A DNA stretch of 40,035 bases, from UHGV virus genome UHGV-0090445; one strand, given 5' to 3'. Every line of letters begins with the position of its first letter. The first letter of the stretch is position 1. The notes beneath the pieces were generated by a model, which saw only the letters and a list, made by a program, of their open reading frames with translations, was not told where the DNA came from and searched no databases. A program made the translations under genes and the position numbers. This document shows positions 1 through 33,917 of this stretch, piece after piece. The DNA comes from a virus.

Positions 1-49
1 TGACGGGTAAAAAGTGGATAAAATAATTTTACCCACCGGATTTTTACCC

Positions 50-1207
50 ATGCTCACCGTTAAGCAGATTGAAGCAGCAAAGCCGAAAGAAAAACCATAC
101 CGCCTTCTCGATGGTAATGGCCTGTACCTTTATGTCCCTGTGTCAGGGAAAAAGGTATGGCAGCTTCGCTACAAGATTGACGGTAAGGAGAAAATCCTTA
201 CCGTCGGAAAATATCCGCTTATGACTTTACAGGAGGCAAGGGATAAAGCATGGACCGCGAGGAAAGACATCTCGGTTGGCATCGATCCGGTAAAAGCGAA
301 AAAGGCTTCGTCTAACAACAATTCCTTTAGTGCGATTTACAAGGAATGGTACGAGCACAAGAAGCAAGTATGGTCAGTAGGCTATGCAACTGAACTTGCC
401 AAAATGTTTGATGACGACATTTTACCCATCATCGGCGGCCTTGAGATTCAGGATATTGAGCCGATGCAACTGCTGGAAGTAATCCGCAGATTTGAAGATC
501 GCGGTGCAATGGAACGAGCCAACAAAGCACGCAGAAGATGCGGCGAGGTTTTCCGTTACGCTATTGTCACCGGAAGGGCTAAATATAACCCGGCACCTGA
601 TCTTGCTGACGCCATGAAGGGATACCGCAAGAAGAACTTCCCGTTTCTTCCTGCAGACCAGATCCCGGCATTCAACAAAGCACTGGCAACATTTTCAGGA
701 AGTATCGTATCGCTCATTGCGACCAAAGTTTTACGCTACACAGCCCTAAGAACGAAAGAGCTTCGTTCCATGCAATGGAAGAACGTCGATTTTGAAAACA
801 GGATTATCACTATCGACGCCAGTGTGATGAAGGGACGCAAGATTCATGTGGTCCCGATGTCGGACCAGGTGGTTGAACTTCTCACTACGTTAAGCTCCAT
901 CACCAAACCAGTATCAGAGTTTGTTTTTGCCGGGCGTAACGATAAGAAGAAGCCAATCTGCGAGAACGCGGTGCTACTTGTGATCAAACAAATCGGCTAT
1001 GAAGGTCTGGAAAGCGGTCACGGATTCAGGCATGAATTCAGCACGATTATGAACGAGCACGAATGGCCTGCTGACGCTATTGAAGTGCAACTGGCACATG
1101 CCAACGGCGGATCTGTGCGTGGAATTTACAACCATGCTCAGTATCTAGATAAGCGCAGAGAAATGATGCAGTGGTGGGCGGACTGGCTTGATGGGAAGGT
1201 GGTGTAA
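50..1207 (+). CDS. int: Tyrosine integrase, P4/CP4-57-like family
   Basis: ORF 14..1207 (GTG at 14; first ATG at 50 giving MLTVKQIEAAKPK...). N-terminal arm-binding-like region typical of P4-type integrases; C-terminal catalytic region with HGFRHEF...RGIYNHAQY (His/Arg/Tyr motif). Start choice between 14 and 50 is uncertain. Confidence 0.9.
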   Translation: MLTVKQIEAAKPKEKPYRLLDGNGLYLYVPVSGKKVWQLRYKIDGKEKILTVGKYPLMTLQEARDKAWTARKDISVGIDPVKAKKASSNNNSFSAIYKEWYEHKKQVWSVGYATELAKMFDDDILPIIGGLEIQDIEPMQLLEVIRRFEDRGAMERANKARRRCGEVFRYAIVTGRAKYNPAPDLADAMKGYRKKNFPFLPADQIPAFNKALATFSGSIVSLIATKVLRYTALRTKELRSMQWKNVDFENRIITIDASVMKGRKIHVVPMSDQVVELLTTLSSITKPVSEFVFAGRNDKKKPICENAVLLVIKQIGYEGLESGHGFRHEFSTIMNEHEWPADAIEVQLAHANGGSVRGIYNHAQYLDKRREMMQWWADWLDGKVV

Positions 1208-1255: not shown

Positions 1256-3238
1256 TTAAGCGCTTGCAATAAAATCCATTTCGAATAGCTGTATTCTATC
1301 GTCTGTTATGTAGGCCTCGAAATATGTTCCATCATATGATGATAACTTAACTCCATTTATATGACCAGCATATGTATCATTGTGCATAATAATTAACTGC
1401 CCGTCACCCTTTCCTACATATTTGCACGTCCATGTCCCATTTGTTTTTGTGCTGTTAAGTAATGTAGTCGTTGACTGCACTCCATCCTTACATATTATAC
1501 CTTTTGCTTCATTTCCTATATACCTTATTCCAAAGTAATTTCCTGATTCCACGGAGCCACAAACTATAAAACCATTTAGTGAATTAACTCCAGATGTAAT
1601 TCCATAAGCAACAGCAAAACCAAGATAGTTAAATGTTTCATATTTTAATACAAGCCGTCGCTCTCTTTTATATCTTACAAGTGCCGTACCGCCAACAGTC
1701 CCCGCTCTTACAACTAATCCACCTTCTGCATAATATTCCAACCCTGAACCTGAGCCGGTTACTTTATTGGTAAATTTATCATAGTCTTGAAATTGAGTAT
1801 GGTGCCTTGTTGTCGCAAGCGTAAATGAAGATGTTACTCCATTAATTGATTTTGTAGCTGTTTCAGTTATAAGCCCTACCTGTACTCCATCAACCCTACT
1901 TTGCGCAACTTTACCAATGCACATACCAAAATCATTACCGATAATGATACCGCCTATCGAAACAGCAACCCAACTTTTTAGTGTGCCAGACATTGGCTTT
2001 AGCGCCTGTCCTATTCTTGTTGAGTTTGAGCTTAATACTCCTCCATGCTTTACAACCATCCCTTTATCATTAATTTCGTTACCGAAATCGCATGATTCAA
2101 CTGATATTGTACTATTATATGCCTCAATACACTTATCAACTCCTACCCCATTGAATGAACAATCATTAACAGCGCCAGATGTGCATCCATAAAATTCAAC
2201 TGAAGCATTTTCATCACTGTGTGTTCTATTTGTAAAGTTTAAAGCGTGCAACTCTGGGCTGTATGGTGTGCCTCCGCATGAAAATACCTGGGCTGACCTA
2301 ACATTAACTGTTGTTCTGTCGGTAGTTCTACTTACTATAACAATGTTTGCTTGTTGCGATGCGCCAGGTGGGAATAGAGGTGTGCACCCCCTCTTGCTTC
2401 TGATTACTATGTCTTCATCATAAGTTCCTGGTGCAATTGAGATAATAATTCTCTGCCAATAATTATTTGGGATATCGTCAATTGCTTCCTGAATGGTCCG
2501 GTAATCTTCCGGAACCATGAGTGTTACAGGCATCGTGTAAATACCCGCCACTGTTGACGAGTCAACGCCAAATGGATGGATGTAACCGCGATACGGATCA
2601 TTACCCCCGATAGTATTGATAAATCCTTCAATGCGTACTTTTGCTGAGTTAGTGTACAGATAACCACATTCACCAATATCTACGCGGAACTTCGCCGGGA
2701 TAGTCAGATCTTCTGTAAATTCCACTGGAACGTTGACAAAAACTCGTCCGTTACCAGAGGCGATGGCGCGTTTGAAAGCCTGCGTGTAGTCTGGAGCTGC
2801 TGGGTCTCCTGGCTCAACAAATGCGCGTAGGTCATAAAATCTTTCCTGCTGACCACCAGGGATTAAAAAACCTTTATCTCCTTCAAGCTCCTGCCTTAAC
2901 TGATCAGGGTCATACTTCAATACGTTTGGATAGTAAAATTGCTGTACGCCATATGCATCATATACAGCCATAGAATGGCCTTGCACAGTTACGAATTTGG
3001 CAATCTGTCCGTTATATACAGGATAACCAGCAGCGTTAATGATTATTGGTTGCGAAACAGGAACATGAGAACCATCTTCGTTTTCTACATAAACCTGAAT
3101 CTGGTTTTCAGGATTTACCGGGTCAGTGTCAATTTTACCGATATAAATTTTGCCATTGGCTACCGCTTTAAAAGAACGAGCCATAGTGAAGAGTTGCGAA
3201 GGCATCGATACGATCACATTGGCTGTAATGTCTGTCAT
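1256..3238 (-). CDS. Tailspike protein, P22 gp9 family (conserved N-terminal head-binding domain, divergent receptor-binding body)
   Basis: 660 aa; N-terminus [11 protein letters not shown]...[35 protein letters not shown]...[12 protein letters not shown] closely matches the remembered P22 tailspike head-binding domain; remainder is not P22-like. Confidence 0.9.
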
Positions 3239-3370: not shown

Positions 3371-3628
3371 ATGATGTACAGCAAATACGATGAGGCGCAG
3401 TTCCACTTGAGGCTTACGCACGAGTTGCACGCTAAGATTAAGCAACGTGCAAAAATGAATAACAGGTCTATCAATTCCGAAATTGTGGCTACGATGGAAG
3501 AATCACTCTCCAAACCATCACCTGTAAGCGGGTATCGTGATGAAGAAGAGAGGCTGGCCTCATTAATCTCGGAACGAGTAAAAGAAGTTGTGGCTGATAT
3601 CCTTAGAAAAGAAAAAACCCGCGATTAA
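3371..3628 (+). CDS. Mnt-like ribbon-helix-helix repressor (second copy)
   Basis: Internal start of ORF 2939..3628 at ATG 3371 with SD GGTGAGG upstream; product ...NNRSINSEIVATMEESLSKPSPVSGYRDEEERLA... resembles P22 Mnt (NGRSMNSE...SKPSPVTGYRNDAERLA). The upstream part of the track ORF is antisense to the tailspike and rejected. Confidence 0.75.
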   Translation: MMYSKYDEAQFHLRLTHELHAKIKQRAKMNNRSINSEIVATMEESLSKPSPVSGYRDEEERLASLISERVKEVVADILRKEKTRD

Positions 3629-3642: not shown

Positions 3643-3864
3643 TTAGTTATCAAAAAGTCCGTACGTTTCTTCTTCTTTAGGTGTAAGGGGAAGAATCTCT
3701 ACTCTATCTATAGATACCTTTTCAATGTACCCATGAGGTCTACTTAAAATTAAAGCTCTCTCATGCCACAGAACTCCAAGAATGTGATACCTTCCAGCAT
3801 CGCCTTTTACCCTGGCTCTTCCTTTGATTCTTGGCGGCATAATGCCATATTTTTTCTTTGCCAT
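3643..3864 (-). CDS. Hypothetical protein (73 aa), translationally coupled to upstream antirepressor gene
   Basis: ORF from track; its start overlaps the stop of the 3864..4643 ORF (ATGA); basic N-terminus MAKKKYG; no family recognised. Confidence 0.4.
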   Translation of the reverse strand: MAKKKYGIMPPRIKGRARVKGDAGRYHILGVLWHERALILSRPHGYIEKVSIDRVEILPLTPKEEETYGLFDN

Positions 3865-4592
3865 TATGCAACATTACTCCCATGAATCAGGTGTTGTAGT
3901 GCTTTAACACCCTCCGCATTGTAGCGGAATGCTTCCACCTGTTTGCTTGAATGCGCAGATTTATCCAAGAAGAACTTCCCGTACTGCTCAGTTTTGAGGT
4001 TGTTTGCGTTAGCAATGCGACCAATCTTGTTGGCCGTTACTCCAAGCTGCTCTGCAACCTCCCCTGCTGAGTAGTAATGCTCTTCTATTGCCGGAAGAGG
4101 TATTGCATTAAAACCAACGAGCGGGTTGATTATACTTGCTGCCGCTGTCTGCTTTGCCTCCGGCGCAAGATTTGGCATCAGATCGAACAGATTGGTAACA
4201 GCTTCAACCGTCATTTTCAATGTTCGCGCTTGACGATACTCAACAAGTCCACTCGCTGATTTACCGCTTTTAATGTGCGCTTCTTGCATACTTTCAAGTT
4301 GGTCTACCAGTGAGCGGCGAACGGCTTTTGACTCGCGAGCGGCAACTCGCAATGCTTGCTTGATTGACATCTCAATGATAACCATCGAAGTTTTGTTCGC
4401 TTTTTGCACTACACTTTTTGTGTAGTGCTCTCCATCCAATTCATCTTCAATTTTCTCGATGAATTTGTTATTACGAACCTCCGGCTCACCGCACTGTCTA
4501 CGAGCCTGATTTACCATCTCAAGCAGGCGCTGGCTGTCAATGGTTTTATCCGTGACAACGGATCCGATGTTTGCTACATTCTTAAAAGTCAT
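3864..4592 (-). CDS. Antirepressor-like protein (KilAC/ANT-like C-terminal region)
   Basis: Track ORF 3864..4643; likely start is ATG at 4592 (MTFKNVANIG...) with SD AAGGAA 6 nt upstream; C-terminal motif EVAEQLGVTANKIGRIANANNL resembles the KilAC/ANT region of the nin-region Rha protein in this window. Confidence 0.6.
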   Translation of the reverse strand: MTFKNVANIGSVVTDKTIDSQRLLEMVNQARRQCGEPEVRNNKFIEKIEDELDGEHYTKSVVQKANKTSMVIIEMSIKQALRVAARESKAVRRSLVDQLESMQEAHIKSGKSASGLVEYRQARTLKMTVEAVTNLFDLMPNLAPEAKQTAAASIINPLVGFNAIPLPAIEEHYYSAGEVAEQLGVTANKIGRIANANNLKTEQYGKFFLDKSAHSSKQVEAFRYNAEGVKALQHLIHGSNVA

Positions 4593-4661
4593 TAGGCATT
4601 CCTTATGTGGTAGTAAGGGTGTGACATAGGCCGCCAGCAGCACACTGGCGGTTTTCTTTTT
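4587..4661 (+). ncRNA. Candidate sar-like antisense RNA covering the ant2 translation start
   Basis: Plus-strand promoter-like -35 GTGACA (4552..4557), 17-nt spacer, -10 TACATT (4575..4580); strong intrinsic terminator CCGCCAG-cagcaca-CTGGCGG + TTTTCTTTTT at 4631..4661. No plus-strand gene precedes it; transcript would be antisense to the ant2 SD and start codon. Confidence 0.35.
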
Positions 4662-4680: not shown

Positions 4681-5403
4681 TCAATGAATCCATTCCTCGC
4701 CGCGAAGTTTTGCCAGCATTGGCTGAGCGTTCTTTACGACAAAATTGTTGGTATCAAGATTCTTCATTTCACGAAGAAGTGATTTCTTGGTTTCTTCTGA
4801 CATGTAGCGAGTCTCATATGCAATATCGTAAATCCTTCCTGAAAGCTCAGAACCAATTTGCTTCATTCCTGGGTAGATGTGTTTGCACATTTGTTGACTC
4901 TTCTCCATCCACAATTGTAAGTAGCAGAGATTAACCAGTTCTTCGTCAGTAAACTGTTTTGCAATCGGTGAGCATTCTGCCTGCCGATCCAAAATATCCA
5001 GCACCCAGCGGCGGAACTCTTTGGCCTTGGGCGTAGAAGCAAACATCGCCACCAAGTGAGCGCCTCGGAGCGAGTAAACTCTGACCGATTTGTTACGTAA
5101 GCTATTGTTTATTCCGTTGACCTTCATATTGAGGGTCAATGACATTGAGTCGGAAAATTCGTCAGCATTACGGGCATAAATTTGGCTGATGGCATCAGTT
5201 TTTTTATAGCCGAGAGCCTTAGCTAGTTCGGCGGAGGTGAACCAGATAGACCCGCCCTCTGTTACAGGGTTAAAAGTGAATCCTTGGAAGTTATAATCTG
5301 ATTTTGCTACAATATTCATGTTAGTTTCCTTGGGTACGGTTACTGACATAGAGGCCCGGTTTGTGTTCGCGCACTTCCGGGCTTCACTATTTTTACTGGG
5401 CAT
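4681..5403 (-). CDS. ant: Antirepressor with Bro-N domain
   Basis: Bro-N-like region FTFNPVTEGGSIWFTSAELAKALGYKK...VRVYSLRGAHLVAMFASTPKAKEFRRWVLDIL; start overlaps the Arc stop (coupling); position matches P22 immI arc-ant. Confidence 0.8.
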   Translation of the reverse strand: MPSKNSEARKCANTNRASMSVTVPKETNMNIVAKSDYNFQGFTFNPVTEGGSIWFTSAELAKALGYKKTDAISQIYARNADEFSDSMSLTLNMKVNGINNSLRNKSVRVYSLRGAHLVAMFASTPKAKEFRRWVLDILDRQAECSPIAKQFTDEELVNLCYLQLWMEKSQQMCKHIYPGMKQIGSELSGRIYDIAYETRYMSEETKKSLLREMKNLDTNNFVVKNAQPMLAKLRGEEWIH

Positions 5404-5584
5404 TAGCTCTTTCCTCTCTCAGGCTTTTAGCCAGTCGCTGCACAATCGCAGAGTTGATAGAAATTCCATCCATTTCAGCTACGCGTCTGATCTCCTCCTT
5501 CATTCGCGCTGGCAAACGAAGCTGGAAACTCTGACTTTTACGACCACTGTAAAGAACATCGCTCATCATCAATATCTCCGTCAT
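5393..5584 (-). CDS. arc: Arc-like ribbon-helix-helix repressor
   Basis: 63 aa; FQLRLPARMKEEIRRVAEMDGISINSAIVQRL resembles P22 Arc (FNLRWPREVLDLVRKVAEENGRSVNSEIYQRV). Confidence 0.8.
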   Translation of the reverse strand: MTEILMMSDVLYSGRKSQSFQLRLPARMKEEIRRVAEMDGISINSAIVQRLAKSLREERANAQ

Positions 5585-5585
5585 A

Positions 5586-5640
5586 ATGACATCACCGTGA
5601 TGTCATGACACCATTATGATGCCATTGCTCATAATGTCAA
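5586..5640. promoter_or_regulatory. immI control region: perfect 10-1-10 palindromic operator plus divergent Pant-like and Pmnt-like promoters
   Basis: ATGACATCAC-C-GTGATGTCAT at 5586..5606 immediately upstream of arc; minus-strand promoter -35 TTGACA (complement of 5635..5640), 17-nt spacer, -10 ATAATG (complement of 5612..5617); plus-strand -10 CATAAT near 5630..5635. Confidence 0.5.
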
Positions 5641-5689
5641 TATGATGCTACTGTGTTTTTTATTGCTCATATGCCTTGCGAATAAGAAA

Positions 5690-5941
5690 ATGTCAGAAAA
5701 AGACGAATCAAATTTCATAGAAAGATTTACGGTTAGAATGCCTGACGGCATGCGTAGTGCTATTGCGGAAAGGGCTAAACGAAACGGTCGATCTATGAAC
5801 TCAGAGATAGTTCAAATTCTTGAGGATGCGTTATCATCTGACGTCTCATCAGTAGACAAATCATTAGATCTTAAACAAATAAAATCTTTACTTGATAAAA
5901 TTTCCAACGAGTTACTGGATAGAATCCCAAAAGACACATAA
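5690..5941 (+). CDS. mnt: Mnt/Arc-family ribbon-helix-helix repressor, divergent from arc-ant
   Basis: Internal start at ATG 5690 of ORF 5642..5941; FTVRMPDGMRSAIAERAKRNGRSMNSEIVQILEDAL is an RHH motif; placement and orientation match P22 mnt. Confidence 0.7.
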   Translation: MSEKDESNFIERFTVRMPDGMRSAIAERAKRNGRSMNSEIVQILEDALSSDVSSVDKSLDLKQIKSLLDKISNELLDRIPKDT

Positions 5942-5991
5942 CAAAACATTATCATCCGGTGTTCTGCTCAAAACTAAGGAGTGGCTACTCA

Positions 5992-6630
5992 ATGAAAAAA
6001 ATAGATATATATAGCGATACATCAGCCTATGTCATAGGCTCATTGGGTTTTTTAATTTTTTTTGTTTGGCAGTACCAGTCACTATCTCCAGGATGGCGAT
6101 TTTTTGGGATGTCTTTGATATCACTTGGTGCAGGAATAGCAACGCAGGTGTTGATGTATCTCTTTAATGGATGGCTCTCAAAAAGAGTTGAGAAAAAAAG
6201 AGCTACTTCAATATGTAGAAGCCTAGCTATTCCAGAAGACTCTACAGATCAGGATGATATTGCAAAATGTTGGCGGTATATGATTGCAAGATACTCAAAT
6301 GAGTTACTGGCAAACAGACTGTCCGACTTAATCGGGGTCGTAGTTACCTCTGTTGGAACAATCATCAGTATAGGGATATCAATTTGGTATGTCGGGATGA
6401 TTGTCTATTTTGTTTGGAATAGAGACTTCAATGAACCTTCCCTTCTTTTTATACCTTTATTTTTCAGGGTATTAGCATTCATATGTGAGTTATTGCTCTC
6501 TTTTTTCTGCAATGTTTTGTTCAACAGATACCCAGGTGAAGCAAGAAAGTTTAATAAAAACTATGATGAGTTAAGGAGAACAGATCCTTTTCTATCAAGT
6601 AAAGAGTTCCGCGATTCCATTCGCAATTAA
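5992..6630 (+). CDS. AT-rich predicted 4-TM inner-membrane protein at the SieA position (candidate superinfection exclusion protein)
   Basis: Start ATG 5992 with SD AAGGAG (5977..5982); four hydrophobic segments; AT-rich by eye; sits between mnt and the gp16 homolog as sieA does in P22. Homology to SieA not verifiable here. Confidence 0.65.
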   Translation: MKKIDIYSDTSAYVIGSLGFLIFFVWQYQSLSPGWRFFGMSLISLGAGIATQVLMYLFNGWLSKRVEKKRATSICRSLAIPEDSTDQDDIAKCWRYMIARYSNELLANRLSDLIGVVVTSVGTIISIGISIWYVGMIVYFVWNRDFNEPSLLFIPLFFRVLAFICELLLSFFCNVLFNRYPGEARKFNKNYDELRRTDPFLSSKEFRDSIRN

Positions 6631-32777: not shown

Positions 32778-33029
32778 ATGGAGTTTCATGAAAGTGCGAT
32801 TTGTGATTTTCGCGCTAACGCAAATTCAGTAAAACCACAGCCAATTGCAGTTCTTTTTAAAACAATGGGTGCGTGGGCTGTTTTATGCTTCGCCGCTGAC
32901 GACACTGACGCAAGAATGGCAATAGGCCAAGAGATGGAGATGGACCCGACAAACGATGAATTCATAATTTATGGCGCTCCATCTAATTACTTACTTGATA
33001 CCTGCAACATTTACAACAAGGCTGCCTGA
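32778..33029 (+). CDS. Hypothetical early protein (83 aa)
   Basis: ORF from track immediately after N; no family recognised. Confidence 0.45.
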   Translation: MEFHESAICDFRANANSVKPQPIAVLFKTMGAWAVLCFAADDTDARMAIGQEMEMDPTNDEFIIYGAPSNYLLDTCNIYNKAA

Positions 33030-33069
33030 TGGTGGCCTTTATTTTTGGCATAAACAATATGGGGTAAAA

Positions 33070-33396
33070 ATGAAAGTTTTAATGGTTTATGAAAATGTTC
33101 CAGAGTCGACTGAAATCTATATTTTTGATGCCAATGAAGATGAAGTTAACGATTTGAAATTGTCTCACGGCAATTACACAAATGCTAATTGTGATGAAAG
33201 TATCGAAAAAGCACTATCACGTGTTCTTGTCAGAATTAGTGATCCAGAACATTGTGATGATGATTGGCTTTCTTATTGTGGAGCGGTAAAAACTGATGCA
33301 GGAAAATGGAGTAAAAGTAAAGTTGATAACTCAACTCCAATTATTATGAAAGATAGCGATATTGAAATGGTAATAATAACCGGAATGATTATGTAG
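33070..33396 (+). CDS. Acidic AT-rich hypothetical early protein (108 aa)
   Basis: Internal start ATG 33070 with SD GGGG; about 21 Asp/Glu vs 10 Lys/Arg by hand count; strongly AT-rich codons. Confidence 0.5.
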   Translation: MKVLMVYENVPESTEIYIFDANEDEVNDLKLSHGNYTNANCDESIEKALSRVLVRISDPEHCDDDWLSYCGAVKTDAGKWSKSKVDNSTPIIMKDSDIEMVIITGMIM

Positions 33397-33502
33397 GCTG
33401 CGAATAAGCACTGTGTATTCATTCCAACGAGTGAATACACGGAGCAATGTCGCTCGTAACTAAACAGGAGACGACTTGTTCTGATTATTGGAAATCTTCT
33501 TT

Positions 33503-33529
33503 GCCCTCCAATGTGAGGGCGATTTTTTA
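33503..33529 (+). terminator. Intrinsic terminator inside the pL operon
   Basis: GCCCTC-CAATGT-GAGGGC followed by GATTTTTTAT. Confidence 0.4.
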
Positions 33530-33548
33530 TCTGTGAGGATATGAACAG

Positions 33549-33917
33549 ATGTCAAACATCAAAAAATACATCATTGATTACGACTGGAAAGCATCAATAG
33601 AAATTGAAATCGACCATGACGTAATGACAGAGGAAAAACTTCACCAGATTAATAATTTCTGGTCAGACTCTGAATACCGACTCAATAAACACGGCGCTGT
33701 ATTAAATGCTGTATTAATCATGCTGGCGCAACATGCTCTGCTTATAGCAATTTCGAAAGACTTAAATGCATATGGTGTTGTTTGTGAGTTCGACTGGGAT
33801 GATGGAAATGGTCAGGAAGGATGGCCTCCAATGGATGGTAGTGAAGGAATAAGAATTACCGATATCGATACATCAGGAATATTTGATTCAGATGATATGA
33901 CTATCAAAGCCGCCTGA
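33549..33917 (+). CDS. Acidic hypothetical early protein (122 aa)
   Basis: ORF from track; about 23 Asp/Glu vs 9 Lys/Arg by hand count, acidic C-terminal region EFDWDDGNGQEGWPPMDGSEG...FDSDDM. Confidence 0.55.
   Translation: MSNIKKYIIDYDWKASIEIEIDHDVMTEEKLHQINNFWSDSEYRLNKHGAVLNAVLIMLAQHALLIAISKDLNAYGVVCEFDWDDGNGQEGWPPMDGSEGIRITDIDTSGIFDSDDMTIKAA

Follow-up and report, generated by a model that had tools for sequence, protein, structure and literature searches.

Behind anchors typical of each genus, phage receptor-binding domains pass horizontally among Lederberg-, Uetake-, Kutter- and other viruses (PMC10408124; Sorensen et al. 2021, PMC8432352), and shuffling of the proteins with which phages interact with their hosts is documented at the level of fragments as well (PMC10684548). 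Spikes of Lederbergvirus and Uetakevirus prophages show a clear link to host O-serogroup (Pas et al. 2023, PMC10408124). We analysed the tailspike gene of the virus genome UHGV-0090445, a DNA stretch of 40,035 nucleotides referred to here in its full length as the window. P22 gp9, Sf6 gp14, HK620 gp9 and the CUS-3 endosialidase spike carry the same PF09008 anchor as the window protein, and the genes of Lederbergvirus spikes likewise close the virion module by an immI-like region and the integrase. The overall plan is shared too, an anchor and linker leading into a beta-helix and then a beta domain at the C-terminus, with the anchor/body junction again near residues 115-124. The only isolated-phage protein with the window body is the tailspike of Kuttervirus (Ackermannviridae) CBA6 (KM389302, 921-984 residues; locus L002, 4487-7441), which is uncharacterised and comes from a record marked 'unverified', and the spike of the P22-like E. 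coli prophage VTB96777v (WP_446497352.1; P0014 cluster) has the same anchor and proximal body. Comparison with these proteins points to a likely organisation in which a P22-type anchor is joined to a recombined body that would recognise polysaccharide, bear a probable processing groove and have its specificity tuned distally. The gene is divided as follows.

1256..3238, minus strand: complete tailspike gene, 660 codons plus stop (list of open reading frames; a single intact frame)
2900..3238, minus strand: P22-type head-binding (tail-anchor) domain, residues 1-113 (PF09008, PDB and DNA matches)
2876..2899, minus strand: junction 1, residues 114-121, QLRQELEG (DNA alignment of the window gene, CUS-3, CBA6 and VTB96777v; BLAST end points)
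2519..2875, minus strand: proximal body subdomain, residues 122-240, an exchange unit (codon-aligned sliding nucleotide identity, segment identities)
2339..2369, minus strand: junction 3, residues ~290-300, gene nt ~870-900 (sliding DNA identity to E. coli VTB96777v)
1904..2518, minus strand: predicted right-handed beta-helix, residues 241-445, opening with a pectinesterase-like cap motif
2039..2224, minus strand: conserved core, residues 339-400, with CIEAYNS and VKHGG, a candidate catalytic or substrate groove (conservation)
1259..1813, minus strand: predicted C-terminal ConA-like (lectin/glucanase-fold) beta-sandwich, residues 476-660

Residues 1-113 span the entire Pfam Head_binding profile (PF09008, E=2e-66, profile positions 1-113 of 113), and over residues 2-113 the anchor is 91% identical to Sf6 gp14 and 76% identical to P22 gp9. 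The best PDB sequence matches are likewise Sf6 gp14 (7sg7, E=3e-64) and P22 gp9 (8tvr/2xc1, E~1e-50), and all PDB alignments end at residue 118-126 (124-126 for the P22 chains with phmmer). Of 50,697 phage records, 28 match the gene over nt 1 to ~350 alone, at 86-93% DNA identity, and nearly all of these are annotated as P22-like phages; the anchor part is present in 1,127 of 5,426 complete E. coli genomes, none of which holds 80% or more of the gene. No homology to the endorhamnosidase body of P22 gp9 (residues ~125-666) was found, and Foldseek gives a template modelling score (TM-score) to P22 gp9 of 0.12-0.13. These results bear out the original prediction, made from the DNA alone, that the first 110 or so residues are the P22 head-binding domain and that the rest is unrelated to P22. 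In the manner of P22 and Sf6, residues 1-113 would attach the spike to the tail.

The body has a different set of relatives. In the same phage records its sole match is the CBA6 tailspike, at 89% DNA identity over nt 357-792 and, by tblastn, at 60.7% protein identity over 543 of 544 body residues (117-660), collinear throughout; no record shows the full-length collinear likeness to one known tailspike that would have counted against a mosaic. Twenty-two relatives are collinear with the whole body at 52-99% identity, and the only full-length collinear match to the window tailspike is its own allele, carried by E. coli assemblies of the P0001 cluster such as ERZ28576441 (scaffold_1). Past residue ~190 the full protein has no match to a solved tailspike or, at E<=0.01, to a PHROG (PHROG matches cover the first ~113-190 residues); a search with the body alone gives two weak matches, phrog_1627 (E=4e-13) and phrog_4577 (E=2e-10), and nothing else.

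DNA comparisons resolve where these parts meet. At junction 1, likeness to P22-like anchors stops and likeness to the CBA6 spike starts, at a position that agrees with the published anchor limit of the HK620 tailspike, whose first 124 residues are taken as its anchor (PMC10408124); codons 114-121 hold an LRxEL-coding microhomology common to the CUS-3-type anchor, the CBA6 spike and the window gene. Residues 121-240 are 88-94% identical to CBA6 at the nucleotide level, and an epsilon15-type prophage of Citrobacter braakii is 90-93% identical over residues 151-240 and 76% over residues 121-150. A codon-aligned comparison that included three further relatives places a second step at codon ~240, with CBA6 and the C. 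braakii prophage at ~90% DNA identity over most of codons 121-240 and at 50-72% beyond; past residue ~240 CBA6 has ~50% DNA and 32-44% protein identity to the window, and its distal part is of another allele type. The third step is seen against the VTB96777v tailspike, to which DNA identity is ~100% over nt 61-870 and 40-72% thereafter (sliding values of 1.00 to nt 840, 0.88 at nt 841-900 and 0.55 at nt 901-960). The two proteins are correspondingly identical over residues 1-290 except for I9V and diverge after, with VTB96777v and P0014 spikes retaining only 37-77% protein identity to the window from residue ~295. Across 23 relatives, a segment table distinguishes two proximal types (residues 117-290) and two distal types (residues 401-660) in differing combinations, separated by a variable patch (residues 291-340) and a conserved core (residues 341-400).

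From these sequence comparisons the tailspike is a mosaic with at least three junctions, near residues 117-121, 240 and 290-300. Recombination would have taken place at the anchor/body linker (residues 117-121), at the short LRxEL microhomology, and at no fewer than two more points within the body, near residues 240 and 290-300, so that the allele would join a P22-type anchor, a shared proximal piece and its own distal piece. The proximal piece appears to be held in common, nearly unchanged, with Kuttervirus and epsilon15-type spikes, and the distal piece (residues 300-660) seems to occur elsewhere only in its own allele cluster. The original prediction had pictured a two-piece mosaic with a swapped receptor-binding module; the swap stands, on anchor-only versus body-only matches and on the same body behind other anchors, and the single breakpoint gives way to the three or more junctions found here. 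The 'boundary sequences' of CUS-3 were also considered as a junction marker and rejected, as they lie upstream of the gene and not at the domain junction. Gene nt 1-60 (window 3179-3238) reach no more than 88% identity to the VTB96777v allele, ahead of the next ~800 nt at ~100%, which may reflect one more small patch of recombination right at the 5′ end of the gene.

The distribution of the body is wide in its anchors and sparse in its numbers. Relatives sit behind P22-type anchors in other P22-like prophages, behind an epsilon15-type anchor that is 84% identical to the anchors of the epsilon15 and TL-2011b spikes, behind Kuttervirus-type anchors with PF18668, in one spike of a 144-kb myovirus contig that bears several spikes, and behind other tail-fibre-type N-termini. 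Judged by sequence, the body is thus found with at least four anchors other than that of the window; the anchor of CBA6, of the Kuttervirus tailspike protein type with PF18668 and upstream domains, is one of those that differ. A full HMMER scan of 1.84 billion cluster representatives returned 116 matches at E<=1e-3, only four of which cover most or all of the body. IMG/VR holds one locus with the body, of the same allele, and 185,579 GTDB species representatives hold one, on a contig of a metagenome-assembled genome with an epsilon15-type anchor. That 6.9-kb contig is binned as Advenella kashmirensis, its body copy is 63% identical and cut by the contig end, and the sequence probably stems from a phage or an enterobacterium and sits in the wrong bin. 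The distal 1,083 nt of the gene have no match in complete E. coli genomes by sensitive blastn. Distant relatives of the helix core (residues 237-410) occur in Vibrio phages at 29-34% identity and in Halorubrum virus CGphi46 at 28% (BFVD R9TQ80, E=6e-12), the phage records concerned being MG592644, OZ196140 and HQ332141. This span of enterobacterial, Vibrio and haloarchaeal hosts is unusually wide for so small a family.

An AlphaFold2 monomer model built from a 24-sequence alignment predicts a small N-terminal subdomain, a short (~200 residues) right-handed parallel beta-helix and a C-terminal ConA-like beta-sandwich that superposes on GH16 and legume-lectin domains. The predicted local distance difference test score (pLDDT) is mostly 80-96 over most of residues 134-445 and 476-660; the anchor and residues 445-474 are modelled poorly, and the proximal subdomain (residues 122-240) scores mostly ~84-91, falling to 60-76 over residues 211-230. 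Foldseek also finds the CBA120 TSP2 and K2-2 tailspikes, with low TM-scores. The structure prediction proposed as a check on a beta-helix glycosidase or lyase accordingly returned the beta-helix, and the enzyme class was not assignable from it. The ConA-like domain is the most AT-rich part of the protein-coding sequence and varies between alleles.

Conservation within the predicted helix is concentrated in one short segment. Residues 341-400 are 77-92% identical in 22 close relatives (all but the most distant of 23) and are flanked by variable sequence. Conserved polar residues across 30 sequences, reaching down to ~21% identity, are Q250, Q262, E275, E343, E348, Y350, Y374, S376, K397, H398 and R525; those in the core (E343, E348, Y350, Y374, S376, K397 and H398) are conserved in 80-100%, and K397 and R525 are invariant. 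E348, Y374/S376 and K397/H398 recur at a spacing of 23-26 residues, which we infer to represent stacked positions on successive helix rungs. The conserved core, with E343, E348, Y374, S376, K397 and H398, likely marks an active groove.

Family searches of this region lead to the pectinesterases of carbohydrate esterase family CE8 and stop at their cap. The body matches PF01095 (pectinesterase) at E=1e-5 with 25.0 bits against a cut-off of 27, over profile positions 11-88 of 298 only, and NCBIfam NF007822 (YbhC-type) at E=8e-5 with 21 bits against 436; a weak pectinesterase match is also present in nine of the ten relatives scanned. These matches are confined to the cap motif that opens the helix; cap motifs are likewise all that a family profile recovers from PDB sequences, and hhalign to E. 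coli YbhC aligns 56 cap columns at 2% probability. The CE8 catalytic set of Gln, Gln-Asp, Asp and Arg was not found by sequence alignment alone, and D368 and D384, the acids nearest the expected CE8 Asp pair, are not conserved. With Pfam, NCBIfam, PDB profile search and hhalign all giving sub-threshold scores or cap-only alignments and no catalytic set, CE8 (PF01095) membership was rejected.

Several other accounts of the protein have to be set against a recombined, polysaccharide-processing spike. Vertical divergence within the P22 family, with a body drifted past recognition and no recombination, would explain the plan common to P22 gp9 and the window protein, a beta-helix body with a part rich in beta structure at its C-terminal end. 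It conflicts with the abruptness of the DNA identity steps (100% to 55% within 60 nt; ~90% to ~70% at residue 240), with the presence of the same body at 60-90% identity behind the unrelated anchors of Kuttervirus, epsilon15-type and other phages, and with a Foldseek TM-score to P22 gp9 as low as that given above, and we regard it as close to negligible. The cap motif invites a second account, in which the body is a carbohydrate esterase of CE8 lineage that strips O-acetyl or methyl-ester groups from O-antigen and does not cut the backbone; given how the CE8 matches end, we judge this quite unlikely.

A further alternative is that the body only binds its receptor, with the conserved residues needed for folding, for packing of the trimer or for binding of sugar. 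This account accommodates the finding that the searches recognised no catalytic motif of a known family, the lectin-type fold predicted for the C-terminal domain and the shortness of the helix (~200 residues). Conservation is nevertheless strongest at charged and polar residues within positions 341-400, between variable flanks, the pattern expected of an active site. Beta-helix spikes that have been characterised in Kuttervirus and in P22-like and epsilon15-like phages are, as far as is known, nearly all enzymes, and this too counts against a binding-only module, which we hold to be unlikely. We also think it improbable that the body stands for a beta-helix enzyme family, so far uncharacterised, that processes polysaccharide, is distantly derived from or convergent with the CE8 cap and uses another catalytic set (Glu343/Glu348, Tyr374/Ser376, Lys397-His398); were it so, the chemistry or the glycan target might be undescribed for tailspikes. 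As a rough division among mechanisms, a hydrolase is the leading candidate at somewhat under even chances, a lyase and binding alone follow at a clearly lower and similar level, and an esterase comes a little below them.

In the preferred reading of a recombined processing spike, domain content, fold class, junction positions and module distribution are results of the comparisons above, and substrate, catalysis and chemistry are what we infer. The body would recognise a host surface polysaccharide, most probably O-antigen, and would probably process it in a groove of stacked rungs bearing E343/E348, Y374/S376 and K397/H398, with the variable distal helix and the lectin-like domain tuning specificity. 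Analogy with the spikes already characterised in Kuttervirus and in P22-like and epsilon15-like phages, the basis of the proposed O-antigen function, makes binding and processing of host O-antigen the most likely activity; the wording of the original prediction, that the module 'sets O-antigen or capsule specificity' and may be a 'glycosidase or lyase', likewise belongs to interpretation. No phage with an assigned receptor was found to carry the window body, CBA6 being the only phage record that has it and one not mentioned in Pas et al. Genes beside two relatives of the spike bear on the same subject. The C. braakii prophage encodes its epsilon15-anchored tailspike relative followed directly by a 637-residue Acyl_transf_3+SGNH protein (locus L009, 8311-10224, minus strand) and then holin and endolysin, and we take the architecture of that protein to resemble O-antigen acetyltransferases of the OafA/Oac type. 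In E. coli VTB96777v, an EpsG-family (Wzy-like) gene lies just after the related tailspike (locus L001, 8029-9147, minus strand), at the prophage end integrated by ybhB/bioA; it has no counterpart in the window and may be a lysogenic-conversion gene. Both the Acyl_transf_3+SGNH and the EpsG-family genes are probable O-antigen modification genes.

The tailspike reading frame starts with ATG, 9 nt downstream of a GGAG ribosome-binding site, and the exact protein is also encoded by E. coli contigs, again within a P22-like prophage and with the same surroundings; an NCBI cluster 99% identical to it is named 'phage tailspike protein [Escherichia coli]'. Its immediate neighbours in the window are these.

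14..1207, plus strand: tyrosine integrase (Pfam Phage_integrase, Phage_int_M and Arm-DNA-bind_3; list of open reading frames)
3371..3628, plus strand: Arc-like ribbon-helix-helix gene in the immI-like region (PF03869, E=1e-14)

Integrase and tailspike are convergent with stops 48 bp apart, and the list of open reading frames for the window shows no O-antigen modification gene between them. A hairpin with a 12-bp stem (1193-1219) lies over the integrase stop codon in this 48-bp gap, with a weak T-run on the plus strand only. On the other side, the Arc-like gene is divergent from the tailspike start, and beyond it, upstream of the tailspike, come the immI-like region and then P22-type ejection-protein genes; homologues of gp16, gp20 and gp7 and SieA, Arc and antirepressor genes all lie upstream, with the integrase downstream. 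The tailspike thus ends the virion/ejection-protein module near immI and int, the gene position typical of Lederbergvirus, and the host prophage is P22-like (Lederbergvirus-type) and apparently complete. On the E. coli contigs with the exact protein, the integrase is followed by host genes of the Form_Nir_trans, MlaA and Toluene_X (FadL-type) Pfam families, presumably corresponding to the argW attachment region of the K-12 map. The immI-like region itself holds three separate Arc-like ribbon-helix-helix genes (3371-3628, plus; 5393-5584, minus; 5642-5941, plus) and a Bro-N/P22_AR_C antirepressor (4681-5403, minus), as well as two open reading frames with no Pfam match (3643-3864 and 3864-4643, both minus).

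The base composition of the gene is distinctive as a whole. With a G+C content (GC) of 0.406, where the window averages 0.472, it ranks lowest of all 1983-nt windows; GC in the 3′ 600 nt is 0.365, a value that just 7 of 789 windows of that length equal or undercut. The earlier remark that the gene is AT-rich toward its 3′ end is therefore correct, with only those last ~600 nt standing out within the gene. Anchor (0.407) and body (0.406) are equal in GC, so composition is no marker of the domain junction and was rejected as evidence for junction 1. Two further islands of low GC (0.35-0.37) comparable to the tailspike 3′ end are found at ~5600-6600, with a SieA-like open reading frame (5959-6630), and at ~32900-33750, with an open reading frame without a Pfam match (32971-33396) and a DUF2528 gene (33549-33917).

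Recognition of one or another surface polysaccharide by a phage is decided by the tailspike body, so any new type of body could potentially serve as a typing reagent, a depolymerase or a part for engineering; the locus flags one rare body family without an assigned receptor or chemistry. It also offers a well-resolved natural example of exchange junctions, one in the anchor linker and two inside the body, that is useful for the design of chimeric spikes. The locus does not change the understanding of P22-like tailspikes, and exchange of spike bodies behind anchors was already known; the features particular to this locus are its rare and uncharacterised family of bodies and the clean resolution of three junctions. 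Relative to Lederbergvirus spikes, the window protein has a much shorter helix (~200 residues) and a ConA-like C-terminal sandwich, and its body has no detectable sequence likeness to those of the P22, Sf6, HK620 and CUS-3 spikes. Relative to CE8 proteins, namely pectin methylesterases and E. coli YbhC, only the cap aligns, with scores below the family thresholds. Compared with published modular spike exchange, the extra junctions inside the body are specific to the window body family.
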